Shown piece by piece: positions 51,809 to 58,401 of a stretch of 64,000 nt of DNA; the stretch's first letter is position 1, and each line of letters begins with the position of its first letter. Below the pieces are notes generated by a model. The model had not been told where the DNA came from and searched no databases. It saw only the letters and a program-made list of their open reading frames with translations. Source of the stretch: Nanobdellati archaeon (GTDB taxonomy: Archaea; Nanobdellota; Nanobdellia; Woesearchaeales; GCA-2686295); NCBI GenBank assembly GCA_014384375.1, contig JACNFY010000019.1, forward strand, positions 36,262 through 100,261. Reading direction: 5' to 3'. The position numbers and the translations under genes were made by a program.

Positions 51809-52894
51809 TTAGAAATGCACAAATTTTACTTTATCAATCTGTTTCTTGGCTTTCTCAAGTTTCTTATTGAAGTCTTTCATGAGAGCCACCATTTTTTCAC
51901 TGGCAATCTCTTTTATCTCGCCTGCACTCATTCGGCCTGATTTGTACTCCTTATATATTTTGTTTAGCTCTTTATCATCCTCTATTAAGTGTTGTTTTAA
52001 TAGCTCGAAAACCATGCATTTCTCGACCTCTGCTCCGAGTCTGCGGTGTTCCTCCAGAGTTGGTCTTCCACCACTAACAGCCTTCATTATCTTTCTCCTA
52101 ACAGATTTTTCATCCTCTGGAATAGTAATGCATGACTCTGGTTTTGACTTTGACATCTTCACACTTCCATCCAGGGAGGGAGTGTATTTATGGTAAAGAG
52201 AGCTTGGAAAGAAGAACCTCTTACTCTTCATCCTGTTAACAACATCCCTGCTCAGCCTTATATGTGGATCCTGGTCAATTCCTACAGGAATTATTCCGGG
52301 CATTCTCTCCTTAAACTGTGGGTACAGAACATCTCCGACCTGTGTGACTGCACTCATAATTCTGCCAGGATCTGCAGCTCCATAGATTGCTTTGAACTCA
52401 TTAAGGGTTATCTTCTTTGCAGCTTCATAAGCGAAGTGAACTACCTCCTTATTGTCTGACTGAAAATAAAATACTGTCTTCTTAGGGTCTAAGCCCAGCG
52501 CTATATAAGCAGGTATGTGGAAGTCCATAGCCCTTTTTCTGCCTTCCTCCAGAGGAACTCCTCGCGCTGCCTGAGCCTCCAAATCAGCTACTAAGATGTA
52601 AGTCTTGGCTCCGTGCTCTTGGAAGTATTTCAGATTTTCAACAACCAGCTTGTTACCTAAGTGTAATTCTTTGTTGGTAGGCATTATGCCACTTAAAGCG
52701 TAGAAAGGGTTTTTCTCTTTTATGCAACGAGCGATTATCTTCAAATCCCTGCCTGCAAAAACAACTCTTCTTCTCATAATTCTGCTAGGTTTAGGAAAGC
52801 CACGGCTATTAAAAACTTCTAATCCAAAGTCTTTGATAAGCTTCTCATAATCCTTGACCAGCTCAGAGCCGTAAGGATCGATAATTTTTGTCAT
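51809..52894 (-). CDS. trpS: Tryptophanyl-tRNA synthetase
   Basis: The N-terminus is IDPYGSELVKDYEKLIKDFG, typical of archaeal and eukaryotic TrpRS. The HIGH-type motif is ELHLGN and KMSKS is present. Confidence 0.85.
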   Translation of the reverse strand: MTKIIDPYGSELVKDYEKLIKDFGLEVFNSRGFPKPSRIMRRRVVFAGRDLKIIARCIKEKNPFYALSGIMPTNKELHLGNKLVVENLKYFQEHGAKTYILVADLEAQAARGVPLEEGRKRAMDFHIPAYIALGLDPKKTVFYFQSDNKEVVHFAYEAAKKITLNEFKAIYGAADPGRIMSAVTQVGDVLYPQFKERMPGIIPVGIDQDPHIRLSRDVVNRMKSKRFFFPSSLYHKYTPSLDGSVKMSKSKPESCITIPEDEKSVRRKIMKAVSGGRPTLEEHRRLGAEVEKCMVFELLKQHLIEDDKELNKIYKEYKSGRMSAGEIKEIASEKMVALMKDFNKKLEKAKKQIDKVKFVHF

Positions 52895-53598
52895 AATATA
52901 TCGCCTTTTGCTTTGGTTAATATAAATTTTTTTATTGTAGCATCAACTAATAGGTCAATAGTGTTTATATTTGGAAGATTTTTTTTTCCAAGCATAACTG
53001 CAAACTCTGTACATCCCAGAATTATTTTTTTTGCACCTTTTTCTAAGTATTTTTCACAAATTTTTTTAGTAATTTTTATCTGTTCTTCTTTTTTGAATCC
53101 TTTATTAAAATTGAAAATAGCCTTTGATAATGTTTCTAATTCTTTCTCATTTGGCTTAAAAGAACTGATTTCTTGGAACTCATATAGCCCGCCCTTGATA
53201 GTTAGTGGTGTTCCAATTACTAACACTTTCTGGATATTATTTTTAATAAGGAATTTTTTTATTTCTTCTTTAAGATCCAGTATGGTTGTGTTGATTCTTT
53301 TTTGGAATTTATCATGAAATAAATGTATTGTATTACAAACCATAACTATGAAGTCTACTTCGAAATTGTGTAATTCTCTTAATCCAGAAATATAGTTTTC
53401 TAAATCTTTCTCTGAAATTTTGTTTCCTATTAGTTCAGGAGCAGGAATACTATTGATAATTATTTGAGGAAAATCTTGGTTATTATTGATTAACTCTCTA
53501 ACTTGTAATTCAGTTATGAGTTTATTATAAAATTCTCCGGTAGCTTCAGGTCCAATGCCTCCTAAGACACCTATTTTACATGTGCCACCGAGAACCAC
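52891..53598 (-). CDS. Aspartate/glutamate racemase family protein
   Basis: Contains GVLGGIGPEATGEFYNKL and the two catalytic Cys regions MVCNTIH and LGCTEF. Confidence 0.8.
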   Translation of the reverse strand: MVLGGTCKIGVLGGIGPEATGEFYNKLITELQVRELINNNQDFPQIIINSIPAPELIGNKISEKDLENYISGLRELHNFEVDFIVMVCNTIHLFHDKFQKRINTTILDLKEEIKKFLIKNNIQKVLVIGTPLTIKGGLYEFQEISSFKPNEKELETLSKAIFNFNKGFKKEEQIKITKKICEKYLEKGAKKIILGCTEFAVMLGKKNLPNINTIDLLVDATIKKFILTKAKGDIL

Positions 53599-53735
53599 CT
53601 TTTAGAGGACTATCTAAGAAAAAGTCGGGTCTATCCCCAAAAACAATCACTTTTTATGTTCATGAGGAGAAGAGAGTTTTTTTCTTATATAAATCTTTCT
53701 CTAAATGGCAAAAATTTTTCGGATTTAATTACGCA

Positions 53736-53749
53736 AAATATTTAAATAG
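53736..53749 (+). promoter_or_regulatory. TATA-like box, with an AAGGAGGT RBS (53777-53784), upstream of the three-gene cassette
   Basis: The sequence aaatatttaaatag lies about 45 nt upstream of the ATG at 53791. A strong Shine-Dalgarno AAGGAGGT lies 6 nt before that ATG. Confidence 0.35.
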
Positions 53750-53790
53750 AAATATCTAACTTATATTAACTGCTTAAAGGAGGTAGCCAT

Positions 53791-54246
53791 ATGAATTCTT
53801 TAGCTTTAGGAGGTGTTTTGAAGCGAATATATGAACATTTTGACATGCAATCTTTTTCAAATAGGTTGAGGGTTCAGAAGGTAATATACCTTTTACAAGG
53901 TGTAGGTATTAATTTAGGATATTCCTACTCTTGGTACATCTATGGGCCTTATTCTACTGGATTAACAAGAGATGCATTTCAGATTACTAATTTTAAAAAT
54001 GTTAAACCAATTGGATTTGTTGAACCAAGCACAGAGAAGAAATTTCAGGAGTTCACTAAAAAAATTAAACAAAAAAATGATTTTTGGTTAGAAGTTGCTA
54101 GTTCAATACATTTTTTGAAAGAGTTATACCCAAATAAAACAAAGTCAAGCATAATCAATGAGATTCAAAATAAAAGAACTAAGTTTAACAATAAGAAAGA
54201 TAAAATACTTCAAGTTTGGGAAGATATAGAGGGTTGGATTATATGA
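53791..54246 (+). CDS. Panacea/SocA-like (DUF4065-type) domain protein, putative antitoxin component
   Basis: RLRVQKVIYLLQGVGINLGYSYSWYIYGPYSTGLTRD resembles the KLQKLLYxAQ...WxxGPVxxxLY core of DUF4065/GepA/SocA proteins. Pattern-level evidence only. Confidence 0.45.
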   Translation: MNSLALGGVLKRIYEHFDMQSFSNRLRVQKVIYLLQGVGINLGYSYSWYIYGPYSTGLTRDAFQITNFKNVKPIGFVEPSTEKKFQEFTKKIKQKNDFWLEVASSIHFLKELYPNKTKSSIINEIQNKRTKFNNKKDKILQVWEDIEGWII

Positions 54247-54455
54247 GAAACCTTAAAATAATTTTTGATCCTAGAACAGACGCAAATAAAATTAATGAGA
54301 AAGTTGTTCAATTAAAAGATGAAGAAAAGATAGAGTCTCCTGTTGGGGCCTTATTCTCGATGTTAGGTGATTCTCTGGAAAAAAAGGAAAAGGTTTACAA
54401 AACTAAGAAATCTATAAAATCTAGGAAAGAGATTCCAAAATTACAGTTTCTTTAA
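54243..54455 (+). CDS. Hypothetical 70-aa protein (acidic centre, K/R-rich tail), middle gene of the cassette
   Basis: I set the start at the ATG 54243-54245, which overlaps the upstream stop TGA 54244-54246. The track ORF begins 27 nt earlier inside the upstream gene. No recognisable motif. Confidence 0.4.
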   Translation: MRNLKIIFDPRTDANKINEKVVQLKDEEKIESPVGALFSMLGDSLEKKEKVYKTKKSIKSRKEIPKLQFL

Positions 54456-54458
54456 AAA

Positions 54459-54848
54459 ATGCCTCAGTTAAACCAGAGAGAAATCAAAATAACCAAGTGT
54501 GATACGAATGGTAAACTTGCCAAAATAGGTTGTCCTCATCACTTTTATATAATTCTTTCTATGAATAAATACAATCAAATAGCTAGTGAATTGTTGGGCG
54601 TTCCATTAACCTCGAAAATAAATGATTTCACTCTTAATTATGGGCTAGATATAACAAATGATGATATAGAAGGAGATTTTGCTCTTGATAAACAAACTTT
54701 TATACTTTGTGACCGTCCTTGTCGAATTAGTAAATCTGACCTTGGAACTATGAAAACTGACGGGTCAAGGATAAGTAAAGAATTATTCACGAGAATTGTT
54801 GATAATATTTCACATTTTATTAGATATGGCAAGAGATTAGGAGCCTAA
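54459..54848 (+). CDS. Divergent MazF/PemK-like toxin-fold protein
   Basis: HHFYIILSMNKYNQIASELLGVPLTSK, FILCDRPCRISKSDL and ISKELFTRIVDNISHFI are collinear with E. coli MazF segments RPAVVLSPFMYNNKTGMCLCVPCTTQ, ALADQVKSIAWRAR and APEELQLIKAKINVLI. It starts 3 nt after the upstream stop. Confidence 0.55.
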   Translation: MPQLNQREIKITKCDTNGKLAKIGCPHHFYIILSMNKYNQIASELLGVPLTSKINDFTLNYGLDITNDDIEGDFALDKQTFILCDRPCRISKSDLGTMKTDGSRISKELFTRIVDNISHFIRYGKRLGA

Positions 54849-54934: not shown

Positions 54935-57556
54935 ATGGGGGACAAAGAGGCTGCCAAACAGCAGATTCAGCTACTTATTGACAAGTATGAGAAAGTTAAA
55001 TCTGAAGGGAAGATTAAAAGTTATAATGAAGAACGAACAAAGCAAGAGTTCATACGTCCCTTATTTGAAGCTTTAGGTTGGGATTTTACTGAAGATGTTT
55101 TACCAGAAGACAAGGCTTCAAGAGGAAGAGTTGATTATTCTTTTAGAATTAATGAATTTCCTAAATTCTTTTTAGAAGCAAAAAAACTATCTGCAGATTT
55201 AGAAGATCAACAATGGGCAGAACAAGTAATAAATTATGCTTGGCATAGAGGAATAACCTGGGCTATTTTAACTGATTTTGAAGGATTAAAAATATTTAAT
55301 GCTGAATGGAAATCAGGAAATATATGGCAAAATCAATTAGGACCTACAATCAAGTATCATCAGTATATCTCTAGATTTGATGAACTCTGGTGTCTTTCAA
55401 GAAAGAGTATGAAAAAAAGGGAATTAGATATTTACGCTGAAAAACACTATAAAAAAATAAAAAAGTCACCTGTAGGAAAGCAAATTCTTATTGATTTAAT
55501 GCATTGGAGAGATATTTTATCTAGTAATATAACTCTAAAAAATCAAGGAAAAATTTTAAGTGAAGAGGATTTAGATGAAGCTGTTCAGAGAATTCTGGAT
55601 AGACTCATATTTATACGTTTCTGTGAAGATAAAGAGTTAGAAGAAAAAATACTTCAAACACACTTAAGAGACTGGCGAGACCATCAGAAAAAGCACTTTG
55701 TTATTATTTTAAGAGACATTTTTGAATATTTTAATGAAGTATATAACGGTAAGTTATTCCGTCCTCATCTTTGTGACGATTTAATGATCGATGATGAAAT
55801 ACTAGAAGAAATAATAGGAGGGCTTCATCATACAAAAGACAGAAATATTTTCTATAATTTTGCGGATATAGAAGCTGATGTTCTTGGGAATATGTACGAG
55901 CAATATTTGGGACACATATTGAAAAAAACTGTTAAGAAAGCTAAAATAAAGAAAGTAAAAAGTCACAGAAAAGAGCACGGTATTTATTTTACACCAACTT
56001 ATATTGTAGATTATATTGTTAAAAATACTTTAGGAGAGCTATTAAAGGATAAGAAAGTTAATGCAGAAAAAATTAAAGTTTTAGACCCTGCTTGTGGCTC
56101 AGGCTCTTTCTTAATAAAAGTATTTGATTATTTAGAAAAACACTTTAAAGAAAAAGCAAGTGTTCAGCAAGAATTAGAATTTGCAAGAAAAACTAAAATA
56201 TTAACAAATAATATTTTTGGAGTTGATCTAGATCCTAAAGCTGTCGAAATAGCACAACTTAATCTTTTATTAAAAACTACTGAAAAGAAACATAGACTTC
56301 CAGATATTGAAGAAAACATTAGAGAAGGAAACAGCTTGATTGATGATTCTCAAATAGCAGGAAATAAAGCTTTCAAATGGGAAGAAAAATTCAAAGAAAT
56401 AATGAATGAAGGAGGTTTTGATGTTGTTATTGGGAATCCACCTTACTTCAATATTAAACAGGATGACATATTGAAAAAAGCTAAAGATTTCTCATTATTG
56501 TTATCAGGTGTTCTTAATGCGGCAACGCTCTTTCTAAAAAAAGGAATTGATTTATTAAAAAATGGTGGTTTTTTGGGTTTTATTATTCCCAAATCTTTCT
56601 TAATAGTTGACTCGTGGTATCCTATAAGAAAAATAATCTTGGAAAACTATAACATAAAGAGTGTGTATGATGTTGGAATCGCTTTTGAAGAAGTTGGGCT
56701 TGAACAAGTAATAATAATTCTTCAAAAAGATAAAAGTTCTAAAAACAATATAAATATAATTAGAGAAGGAGAACAAATTAACATAATTCCACAAAATTTC
56801 TTTGAAAAAAAAAGGGTAATACTTACTTCATTAGATAAAGAAAAATATCCTCTGATTTTGAAAATGGAAATGAATTCTACAAAACTAAGTGAGTTTAGTG
56901 ATATGCCAAGAGGTCTTACAGTTAAGTCTTCTGAATACATATTAGCACCTTCTAGTGATATTGTACAAGTTCTTGGTGGAACAAATGTTGAAAGATACAG
57001 AAAGAAAGAGGGAAGTAAAAGAAAACCAAACAGATATTTAGATAAACAGAACCAAAAAATCTTACAAAAGAAATTTATTTTTGAAAAAGAAAGACTCATT
57101 TATCAAAATATTGCTTCAAGTGTACCAAGAATAGTTGCAACAATAGAAAATAAAAAATTACCAACAGACGATACTTTAAATAACTTGACATGTCAAAAAT
57201 CTGATTTATCGATTAAATATATTTTAGCTATATTAAATTCTAAATTAACCACTTTCTATCTCAGATATGCAATAATAAATTGTTCCGTTCTTACAGTTCA
57301 TCTTGATAAACCATATCTAGGCAAGGTTCCTATTAAAATTATTCCAAAATCGCAGCAAGAATTAATAAGTAGTTTTGTTGACAAGATGCTCTCGCTTAAC
57401 AAACGCTTTAACGAACTTGGCGACAAACAAACAGATGAAAGAGCAAAGATAGAAGAACAAATTAAAAAAACAGATGAAGAAATTGACAGATTAGTTTACA
57501 AGATTTATGGAATAACTAAAGAGGAGCAGAGGATTATTGAGGAGAGTTTGAAATGA
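54935..57556 (+). CDS. Type IIG (Eco57I/TaqI-like) single-chain restriction endonuclease / N6-adenine DNA methyltransferase
   Basis: An N-terminal PD-(D/E)xK-like nuclease motif reads RVDYSF...FFLEAKK. Methyltransferase motif I is VLDPACGSGSFL and motif IV is VVIGNPPYF. A C-terminal region of about 350 aa has the length and position of a target-recognition domain. Confidence 0.85.
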   Translation: MGDKEAAKQQIQLLIDKYEKVKSEGKIKSYNEERTKQEFIRPLFEALGWDFTEDVLPEDKASRGRVDYSFRINEFPKFFLEAKKLSADLEDQQWAEQVINYAWHRGITWAILTDFEGLKIFNAEWKSGNIWQNQLGPTIKYHQYISRFDELWCLSRKSMKKRELDIYAEKHYKKIKKSPVGKQILIDLMHWRDILSSNITLKNQGKILSEEDLDEAVQRILDRLIFIRFCEDKELEEKILQTHLRDWRDHQKKHFVIILRDIFEYFNEVYNGKLFRPHLCDDLMIDDEILEEIIGGLHHTKDRNIFYNFADIEADVLGNMYEQYLGHILKKTVKKAKIKKVKSHRKEHGIYFTPTYIVDYIVKNTLGELLKDKKVNAEKIKVLDPACGSGSFLIKVFDYLEKHFKEKASVQQELEFARKTKILTNNIFGVDLDPKAVEIAQLNLLLKTTEKKHRLPDIEENIREGNSLIDDSQIAGNKAFKWEEKFKEIMNEGGFDVVIGNPPYFNIKQDDILKKAKDFSLLLSGVLNAATLFLKKGIDLLKNGGFLGFIIPKSFLIVDSWYPIRKIILENYNIKSVYDVGIAFEEVGLEQVIIILQKDKSSKNNINIIREGEQINIIPQNFFEKKRVILTSLDKEKYPLILKMEMNSTKLSEFSDMPRGLTVKSSEYILAPSSDIVQVLGGTNVERYRKKEGSKRKPNRYLDKQNQKILQKKFIFEKERLIYQNIASSVPRIVATIENKKLPTDDTLNNLTCQKSDLSIKYILAILNSKLTTFYLRYAIINCSVLTVHLDKPYLGKVPIKIIPKSQQELISSFVDKMLSLNKRFNELGDKQTDERAKIEEQIKKTDEEIDRLVYKIYGITKEEQRIIEESLK

Positions 57557-57702: not shown

Positions 57703-57909
57703 ATGAATTTTATCAATATTATGCAAAGATGGTCTTTTGAAGTTTTGGGTTTGTTGTTAATAATTATACCTGGAATAATTTTGTTAAGGAATGTCTTGGG
57801 CGGAAATACAAGCAATTGGAGTGTTTATGTAATTTTAATTGCTTTTGGAGGATTATTGTCTGGATTTAAATCTATTTATAATAATATTATGCGTTACTTT
57901 GGAAGATAA
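57703..57909 (+). CDS. Small membrane protein (68 aa)
   Basis: Two predicted TM helices. GAGGTAAAAA precedes the ATG. Confidence 0.35.
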   Translation: MNFINIMQRWSFEVLGLLLIIIPGIILLRNVLGGNTSNWSVYVILIAFGGLLSGFKSIYNNIMRYFGR

Positions 57910-58002
57910 AGAATATTTTGTTCTTATTCTAGACAAATAAATTTCCTCTTAAATCAAAACTTTTATAAACAAAATATTAATATCTTTGGTCAGGTGGTAA
58001 TT

Positions 58003-58401
58003 ATGACTATTGTAGGGTTTAATTTTACAAAGTTAGTGGCTGAAAAGAAGAGGCCTGTGAAAGGAAAAATCAATATTAAGAATAATGTTTCTATAAAGAA
58101 TATTTCAGAGTCAAAGCTAGCTATTGATGCTAAGAAGAAAGCTTTGAAATTTGATTTTGTTTACACTTCAAGTTACGAGCCCGGTGTAGGTCTTATAGAG
58201 ATAGAGGGAGAAACAATCTTTCTAGCTGATGAAAAAGTTGCTAAAGAGACTTTGAGTAAATGGAAGAAAGAGAAGAAAGCGCCTTCTCAAATAATGCGTG
58301 AGTTGATGAATCACATCTTAACAAGATGTAATGTTGAAGCAATTGTATTGAGCAAGGATATCAATCTTCCAGCGCCGATACCTCTTCCAAAAATGAAGTG
58401 A
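58003..58401 (+). CDS. Hypothetical protein (132 aa) with a weak SecB-like sequence pattern
   Basis: I set the start at the ATG at 58003, 5 nt after AGGTGGT. Alternating beta-like segments and the C-terminal NHILTRCNVEAIVLSKDINLPAPIPLPKM recall the SecB segment [29 protein letters not shown]. The resemblance is weak. Confidence 0.4.
   Translation: MTIVGFNFTKLVAEKKRPVKGKINIKNNVSIKNISESKLAIDAKKKALKFDFVYTSSYEPGVGLIEIEGETIFLADEKVAKETLSKWKKEKKAPSQIMRELMNHILTRCNVEAIVLSKDINLPAPIPLPKMK

Follow-up and report, generated by a model that had tools for sequence, protein, structure and literature searches.

We analysed a window of 64,000 nucleotides from contig JACNFY010000019.1 of the Nanobdellati archaeon assembly GCA_014384375.1, and describe here a compact cassette of three genes, ORF1, ORF2 and ORF3, that has the appearance of a toxin-antitoxin (TA) module. 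ORF1 encodes a free-standing protein homologous to the toxin-binding C-terminal domain of DarG, ORF2 a genuine but rare lysine-rich small protein, and ORF3 a divergent member of the PemK/MazF family. The exact cassette proteins are present in the NCBI records of two DPANN/Nanoarchaeota metagenome-assembled genomes (MAGs), where the first two are labelled ‘hypothetical protein’ and the third ‘type II toxin-antitoxin system PemK/MazF family toxin’. An earlier note on this DNA, made from the letters alone, had read the locus as a translationally coupled trio of a Panacea/SocA-like protein, an unknown and a MazF/PemK-like protein. Its open reading frame coordinates are exact in the sequence (Table 1).

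The three genes are packed without room to spare. The ORF1 stop and the ORF2 start overlap as ATGA, with two bases in common, and a 3-nt gap separates the ORF2 stop from the ORF3 start; both junctions had been read correctly before. Translation signals fade along the cassette: the Shine-Dalgarno-like site AAGGAGGT precedes ORF1, a weak GAGG lies 9 nt before the start of ORF2, and no signal comparable to AAGGAGGT occurs 5' of ORF3, which fits re-initiation past the ORF2 stop. Upstream of ORF1, the TATA-like box TTTAAATA is joined by a second candidate, TTATATTAA, where the earlier note had named a single box and a single ribosome-binding site. Boxes resembling TTTAAATA also lie 5' of ORF1 in the homologous loci L008, L009, L014 and L019, and GGAGGT or GAGGTG occupies the same pre-ORF1 position in most homologous loci. 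A scan for bacterial-type promoters gave no surplus of sites at the locus, as expected of an archaeal host.

Table 1. Features of the cassette and its surroundings (positions are those of the window)
Feature	Position	Strand	Remarks
ORF1	53791-54246	+	151 aa; ATG at 53791, TGA at 54244-54246; read directly
ORF2	54243-54455	+	70 aa; ATG at 54243-54245, TAA at 54453-54455; read directly
ORF3	54459-54848	+	129 aa; ATG at 54459; read directly
TTTAAATA	53741-53748	+	archaeal TATA-box-like element, ~43-50 nt 5' of ORF1; read directly, function inferred
TTATATTAA	53761-53769	+	second TATA-like candidate, 5' of ORF1
AAGGAGGT	53777-53784	+	Shine-Dalgarno-like site, 6 nt 5' of ORF1 ATG; read directly
Type IIG restriction-modification enzyme	54935-57556	+	873 aa; neighbour, outside the unit
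Asp/Glu racemase gene	52891-53598	-	just 5' of the cassette; GC ~0.27-0.30
Small ORF	57703-57909		68 aa, hydrophobic; low GC
Small ORF	57994-58401		135 aa; low GC

The arrangement recurs well beyond this genome. ORF1 homologues from other assemblies were combined with 80 loci from a metagenome scan, ORF2 and ORF3 profiles were searched against all six-frame ORFs of these loci, and removal of near-duplicates left 71 non-redundant ORF1-family groups. In 20 of the 71, both other genes lie directly downstream of ORF1 in the order ORF1-ORF2-ORF3 (19 triads were identified by profile, and L065 was added by BLAST clustering); a further group, L020, has a contig edge inside the cassette. In contigs of the ORF1 homologues from other assemblies, the three proteins measure ~153, 66-78 and 129-148 aa, with junctions between a 25-nt overlap and a 2-nt gap; across the 20 triads, junctions span -25 to +3 nt. 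That the same order and tight junctions are found in 20 loci from other metagenomes argues that the arrangement is more than chance, and both the reading of the trio as one coupled unit and the idea that it should co-occur elsewhere are thereby borne out. ORF2 and ORF3 are found together in every one of the 20 complete non-redundant triads. A search seeded with the ORF3 homologue P0003 recovered ORF1-ORF2-ORF3 with the same ATGA overlap; in all, three ORF3 homologues were found independently of ORF1, and one of their contigs was long enough to show the upstream genes.

One lineage alone departs from this rule, by loss or truncation of the third gene. In L009, ORF1 and ORF2 are intact, ORF3 is absent and a GreA gene follows immediately, and in its close sister L017 the same two genes are intact next to an ORF3 truncated at its C-terminus. 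If ORF3 is the harmful member, decay of the third gene alone is what one would expect. The two loci (L009:2669-3399 and L017:283-1286) represent a single lineage with toxin-gene decay, and ORF2 of L009 carries a 6-residue read-through tail. The L009 neighbours are of bacterial type (GreA, Lgt), which suggests that the cassette also occurs outside the archaea.

ORF3 was assigned by several routes. Five homologues (P0003, L007, L008, L019 and L014), with 42-65% identity to the window protein, reach 27.7-38.0 bits with PF02452, where the gathering cut-off is 23.1, and align to positions 2-108 of the 109 in the profile. The window protein matches PHROG 1936 ‘MazF-like growth inhibitor’ (E = 0.0015) and, weakly, the NCBIfam MazF model (E = 0.11). 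When aligned with hhalign to E. coli MazF, whose sequence was checked against the K-12 record, a 19-sequence ORF3 alignment places residues 25-58 on 26-59 (E = 4e-4), and an 8-sequence alignment is collinear with MazF from residue 27 to 118. The MazF/PemK likeness and the collinearity that the earlier note had judged by eye are thus reproduced, as is the lack of the N-terminal GD(I/L)xxV motif, in whose place ORF3 has R-E-I-K-x-T. Taken together, these matches mark ORF3 as a divergent PemK/MazF family protein and a putative endoribonuclease toxin.

Some of the residues conserved in ORF3 can be set against the active site of MazF. Arg29 and Thr52 are active-site residues of E. coli MazF, Arg29 being catalytic; hhalign pairs them with His28 and Thr51 of ORF3, respectively. 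In the close family, His28, Tyr38-Asn39, Gly47, Thr51-Ser52 and Asp85-Arg86-Pro87-x-Arg89 are invariant. The last of these belongs to a C-D-R-P-C-R strand with an invariant D85, and we take the C-D-x-P strand to be like that of Kid. A model of ORF3 built with AlphaFold2 (AF2) from a 3-sequence alignment is poor (predicted local distance difference test, pLDDT, 44); in Foldseek, Kid/MazF structures rank at the top and make up 8 of its 11 best PDB matches, the best with E = 0.15 and a probability of 0.69 and none significant alone. The two MAG records deposit ORF3 at 129 and 95 aa, the latter 34 residues shorter. Since invariant His28 and the N-terminal strands, which are conserved, fall outside the 95-aa model, the 129-aa model is correct. 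We consider it quite likely that ORF3 is a growth-inhibiting toxin.

ORF1 had previously been placed in the DUF4065/Panacea family on the strength of its QK...GP core, an assignment that needs correction. None of the 48 ORF1-family members compared with PF13274 (DUF4065) matched it, neither the 15 close members at E ≤ 10 nor the 33 distant ones at E ≤ 1. The core nonetheless does align: hhalign of the ORF1 family (108 sequences) against 11 phage DUF4065-type proteins gave a probability of 79% (E = 1.6e-5) over the N-terminal 61 columns only, which contain the QK...YGP core. The 11 phage proteins are homologues of the prophage phi52237 DUF4065 protein, itself in the set, whose PanAT pair is named in PMC8832971; 7 are annotated as DUF4065, SocA or GepA.

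The closest relative of ORF1 is instead the C-terminal domain of DarG; to Panacea, ORF1 is a distant cousin. The 108-sequence alignment matched a Mesorhizobium DarG with a probability of 97.7% (E = 1.8e-12), with ORF1 residues 22-151 on DarG residues 182-341, and DarG profiles match ORF1 in the C-terminal half of DarG (PADLOC, 3.8e-9; NCBIfam, 5e-7). A tblastn search of 72,556 plasmids with ORF1 returned one match, a Mesorhizobium macrodomain protein beside a DUF4433 (DarT) gene. The AF2 model of ORF1 is of high confidence (pLDDT 97; predicted template modelling score 0.91), and its sole real PDB match in Foldseek is 7yk3_D, the DarG chain of the M. tuberculosis DarTG complex (probability 0.99, TMq 0.62). 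The structural comparison called for by the earlier note placed Kid/MazF first for ORF3, albeit from the poor model, and for ORF1 gave DarG. PMC13621843, with reference to a structural study of the complex, describes this DarG domain as the one that binds DarT and inhibits it; the paper also counts DUF4065 proteins among its homologues.

ORF1 aligns to the C-terminal half of DarG only and has no Macro domain match. Searched against the PDB by sequence, the ORF1 family profile gave nothing meaningful, and Foldseek against viral structures gave weak matches only, the best being a Sulfolobus polyhedral virus 2 protein (probability 0.77). A SecB-like chaperone was considered for ORF1 and rejected, with no SecB match in Pfam or by fold. 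The family has at least 628 relatives in a word-limited search, many of them labelled ‘YwgA’ by JGI, and is without a Pfam model. Residues 23-137 of ORF1 also weakly match PADLOC PDC-M19A (E = 0.0031), the first protein of the candidate phage-defence system PDC-M19; DarG C-terminal-domain-like proteins may thus occur in other candidate defence systems.

Outside the triads, the ORF1 family keeps other company. In 50 non-triad ORF1 groups, the gene directly downstream belongs to other families. Counted before the removal of near-duplicates, these partners comprise family C2 (~129 aa, 13 loci), family C3 (~120 aa, 12 loci), family C5 (~205 aa, 8 loci), HD-domain proteins (450-500 aa, 8 loci), families C8 and C9 (181-189 and 245-247 aa, 2 loci) and a PIN-like protein (164 aa, 1 locus, by a weak match). 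The C families are without assignment, and hhalign among the partner families found no relation between any of them. C3 is usually followed by an overlapping ParE-like toxin gene (PF15781, E = 4.7e-11, above the cut-off), which makes a second three-gene design: an ORF1 relative comes first, the unrelated C3 gene takes the middle place, and the toxin gene is ParE-like. ‘Hyperpromiscuous’ partner exchange is the defining behaviour of Panacea (PMC8832971), and the ORF1 family displays it too, with PemK-type, ParE-type, PIN-like, HD and at least three other partner families.

Some of these partnerships deserve a closer description. The C3-ParE triads (L031, L033, L043, L050, L054 and L059; for example L033:3459-4672) run parallel to the PemK-type triad. 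Proteins with HD plus HD_assoc_2 domains lie directly 3' of distant ORF1 relatives in L083, L088 and L090-L093 (for example L083:3471-5400), a pairing that we take to resemble ywfO-ywgA of Bacillus subtilis and that may constitute a separate TA-like or defence pair. A profile scan of genome contigs for ORF1 relatives yielded one distant locus, L013, in a Candidatus Wolframiiraptor MAG; there (L013:3181-4175), 17 nt separate the distant ORF1 relative from the downstream gene of the PIN-like protein (Pfam PIN, E = 0.0035), and a middle gene is lacking.

The middle protein ORF2 defines a small family of its own. When all of 1.84 billion representative proteins were scanned, 11 relatives of 67-78 aa came up, all matching end to end and none fused to another domain. 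They share a conserved centre, S-x-x-F-S-M-x-x-D-A-x-E-K, followed in the window clade by a basic tail, K-I-F-K-I-K-K...I-P-x-x-x-F-L. Searches of Pfam, PHROG, PADLOC, NCBIfam and PDB families gave no match, in keeping with the earlier view that ORF2 resembles nothing recognised, and the PDB profile search gave just lysine-rich ribosomal tails. A MazE-like antitoxin was tried and set aside (hhalign against E. coli MazE, E = 0.4), as was a fragment of longer ORF1-like proteins, to which ORF2 shows no similarity; ORF1-like proteins are of equal length across partner classes. Net charges of ORF2 and ORF3 are inversely correlated (r = -0.54, compared with -0.41 for ORF1 and ORF3), although so few and related loci (n = 16) do not settle the matter.

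From this evidence we tentatively favour a three-component type II-like TA module, in which ORF1 and ORF2 would form a split antitoxin that neutralises ORF3, and whose role, within a small defence islet, is probably abortive infection or addiction. In the mechanism we infer, one promoter and one strong ribosome-binding site would drive ORF1, ORF2 would be translated through ATGA stop-start coupling, and ORF3 would follow by re-initiation 3 nt past the ORF2 stop. Given this order of coupled translation, ORF3 should not be made in excess of either ORF1 or ORF2. ORF3 would be a ribosome-independent endoribonuclease of PemK/MazF fold, built around the Thr51/Ser52 loop, His28 and the Kid-like C-D-R-P-C-R strand, and would be kept inactive by protein-protein binding to the two-part antitoxin. 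ORF1 would supply the shared globular clamp or adaptor half, and ORF2 the toxin-specific contact, co-antitoxin or bridge. Were synthesis to stop, because a phage takes over or the island is lost, or were a partner to be degraded, ORF3 would be freed and would cut cellular RNA.

A split antitoxin is favoured because ORF1 descends from a toxin-binding domain, and ORF2 is both obligatory and confined to this toxin family. Its parts differ in strength. Contact between ORF2 and ORF3 is rather probable, as is, to the same degree, contact of ORF1 with ORF3 or with an ORF2-ORF3 complex; that both are needed for full neutralisation is conceivable, but somewhat more doubtful than either contact.

Several results weigh against the split-antitoxin reading. 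The window ORF3 itself does not match PF02452 at E ≤ 1 or E ≤ 10, the ORF3 family profile found no MazF in the PDB by sequence, and the fold match to Kid/MazF, coming from the low-confidence model, is no more than suggestive. ORF3 has a histidine where E. coli MazF has its catalytic arginine, and a subclade (L024, L027, L028, L032 and L065) is without the DRPCR strand and carries an insertion; some ORF3 members may for this reason lack activity or work in another way. The MazE tail is acidic, in contrast to ORF2, which matches no antitoxin family and in the window clade is strongly basic (+6, pI 9.7). No operator rises above chance: in 15 of 18 loci, among them the window, shuffled sequence does as well as the best inverted repeats upstream, and the palindrome at 53702-53727 is no better either. 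Finally, verified pairs of PanA with MazF-like toxins are two-gene systems (PMC8832971), and the ORF1 relatives beside PIN-like and HD partners have no middle gene. As two genes suffice elsewhere, ORF1 alone or ORF2 alone could suffice here.

The alternative that survives best, though we consider it somewhat unlikely, is that ORF2 and ORF3 make up a type II pair of the ordinary two-gene kind, in which ORF2 is the labile antitoxin, and that ORF1 is an add-on which neutralisation does not require (a chaperone-like stabiliser, infection sensor or regulator). With its 70 aa and a stop 3 nt before the toxin gene, ORF2 has the size and position of MazE/PemI antitoxins, and it is strictly linked to ORF3, whereas ORF1 relatives keep many other partners. 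The C3-ParE triad likewise fits one accessory gene joining several pre-existing antitoxin-toxin pairs, as SecB-like chaperones did in toxin-antitoxin-chaperone (TAC) systems, which are named in PMC8832971. Yet neither ORF2 nor the ParE-linked C3 protein matches Pfam antitoxin models or E. coli MazE. ORF1, moreover, is homologous to a domain that binds and blocks a toxin directly, and its relatives stand immediately 5' of toxin-like genes without a middle gene at other loci. Approached from the ORF3 side, the sole contig reaching far enough upstream again showed ORF1 as well as ORF2.

It is unlikely that ORF1 alone is the antitoxin, binding ORF3 directly in the manner of PanA or the DarG C-terminal domain, with ORF2 as an accessory such as a nucleic-acid-binding operon regulator. 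The ancestry of ORF1, homologous to DarG and distantly to Panacea, speaks for it, and PanA does neutralise MazF-like toxins in two-gene systems (PMC8832971); the high pI of ORF2 is of a kind often seen in nucleic-acid binders. An accessory would, however, hardly be expected in 20 of 20 complete triads when PanAT accessory third genes occur in a small fraction of genomes (PMC8832971), and no conserved operator lies upstream of the cassette. The charge of ORF2 turns acidic in the divergent subclade, where ORF3 changes too, which fits a protein partner better than DNA. Least probable of all is that the trio is some other conserved complex in which ORF3, of MazF fold but altered in its catalysis, serves a non-toxic purpose such as binding RNA or regulation: the Arg-to-His replacement, the sub-threshold Pfam scores of the window ORF3 and the subclade without the DRPCR strand would fit, but the invariance of His28, Thr51, Ser52, Asp85, Arg86, Pro87 and Arg89 in the close family argues for a maintained active site, and the selective loss of ORF3 in one lineage, the defence- or TA-rich neighbourhoods and the homology of ORF1 to an antitoxin domain argue against it.

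The proposed split-antitoxin module shares features with four known kinds of system. PanAT (Kurata et al. 2022, PMC8832971) sets a Panacea/DUF4065 antitoxin against toxins of several kinds, EndoA/PemK/MazF-like PanT proteins among them. As there, a small helical antitoxin-type protein, here ORF1, is encoded just 5' of the toxin; its (R/K)xQK...YGP core aligns with real DUF4065 proteins, and its family sits beside many unrelated partner families. By contrast, no ORF1-family member examined reaches the Pfam DUF4065 model, the similarity being confined to those 61 N-terminal columns; third genes turn up sporadically in PanAT loci, but the middle gene of this cassette is obligatory (20 of 20); and ORF1 relatives, unlike Panacea, were absent from the two viral collections searched, viral contigs and, by tblastn, phage genomes. 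Scans of viral contigs gave no ORF3 relatives either. With DarTG the likeness lies in ORF1, which matches the DarG C-terminal domain over its whole length by sequence profile and predicted fold (PDB 7YK3); that domain neutralises its toxin by direct binding, as stated in PMC13621843. The differences are that ORF1 is without a macrodomain and hence without an enzymatic (type IV) arm, that its partner is a PemK/MazF-type protein and not the DarT ADP-ribosyltransferase (DUF4433), and that an extra small protein, ORF2, is encoded between the two.

MazEF and Kis-Kid (PemIK) are matched by ORF3, a PemK/MazF family member also by its NCBI name, and by the small, tightly spaced gene directly 5' of it. 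They differ in that ORF2 has no detectable similarity to MazE or Pfam antitoxin families, in that ORF3 has no GD(I/L)xxV motif and a histidine for the catalytic arginine, and in that a third conserved gene lies upstream. TAC and paaR-paaA-parE are likewise three-gene TA operons, and TAC has an accessory family common to several antitoxin-toxin pairs, as ORF1 relatives are to PemK- and ParE-type triads. ORF1, however, is neither SecB-like nor of a transcription-factor family, and the accessory gene comes first in this cassette; TAC and paaR systems place it last.

The cassette lies in a low-GC islet beside a restriction-modification (RM) gene and between housekeeping genes. GC content is 0.27-0.31 across ~52.8-58.2 kb, compared with ~0.36 for the whole window, in agreement with the AT-rich setting described before. 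A class I (Trp/Tyr) tRNA synthetase gene and the Asp/Glu racemase gene lie on one side of the cassette, and a CDC48-type ATPase gene on the other. The racemase gene is itself low in GC; the low-GC stretch thus starts before the cassette and is not confined to the TA and RM genes. Two small low-GC ORFs between the RM and CDC48 genes have no Pfam match. Around the islet we found no insertion scars, with no flanking direct repeats, tRNA or integrase.

The RM enzyme matches Eco57I (1.7e-37), N6_Mtase (4e-29) and TaqI_C (5e-15) in Pfam and REase_MTase_IIG (6e-111) in PADLOC; its gene model measures 873 aa in one MAG record and 715 aa in the other. The earlier note had placed this gene directly downstream, and it does follow ORF3, across an 86-nt AT-rich spacer, but as a frequent neighbour and not a part of the unit; it probably has its own promoter. 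RM genes neighbour three independent triads (the window, L001 and L004), lie near or adjacent in L001 and L004, where they are of unrelated types, and were not found next to most other triads. As they differ in type and are absent at other loci, they do not belong to the cassette. An AbiEii gene lies near the triad in L008, and the RM and AbiEii neighbours fit a defence-island setting. The L008 triad is further flanked by a compact cluster of three genes (185, 70 and 127 aa, the last rich in Cys-x-x-Cys) at 108-1301 on the minus strand, with the AbiEii-family gene at L008:3231-4010; the region looks like a TA- or defence-rich islet.

How much of this is new requires some care. The toxin family is itself ordinary and, as the NCBI label of ORF3 shows, already annotated. 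Pairs of Panacea with MazF-like toxins, which are among the verified PanT toxins, have been published, as have archaeal Panacea and three-gene Panacea loci (PMC8832971), so that the novelty earlier attached to these aspects was overstated. Literature on YwgA, on DarG with Panacea and on DPANN with MazF yielded no description of this architecture, and the NetFlax paper makes no mention of DarG or of tripartite systems. What we did not find described are a stand-alone DarG-C-terminal-domain family as a partner-swapping upstream gene, an obligatory middle protein of the ORF2 type, and this three-gene design in DPANN archaea.

We put forward, as a possibility short of our preferred expectation, that the ‘YwgA’ DarG-C-terminal-domain-like proteins are a second, hitherto unrecognised partner-swapping antitoxin or adaptor family, sister to Panacea, which builds obligate split-antitoxin triads with PemK/MazF- and ParE-type toxins in DPANN and other archaea. 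The DUF4065 model that underlies the published Panacea survey does not detect this family. If the proposal is true, the toxin-clamping domain of DarG would also exist free-standing and be reused with unrelated toxins as Panacea is, which would widen the set of general-purpose antitoxin domains. The cassette would then be a clean, obligatory three-part type II module with its antitoxin function divided over two polypeptides, and would bear on how TA systems exchange partners in evolution. For annotation, there is a gain in naming two proteins now called hypothetical and in extending the deposited ORF3 model that is 34 residues short. As DPANN genomes are very reduced, a retained islet of TA and RM genes informs on the economy of defence in these archaea.

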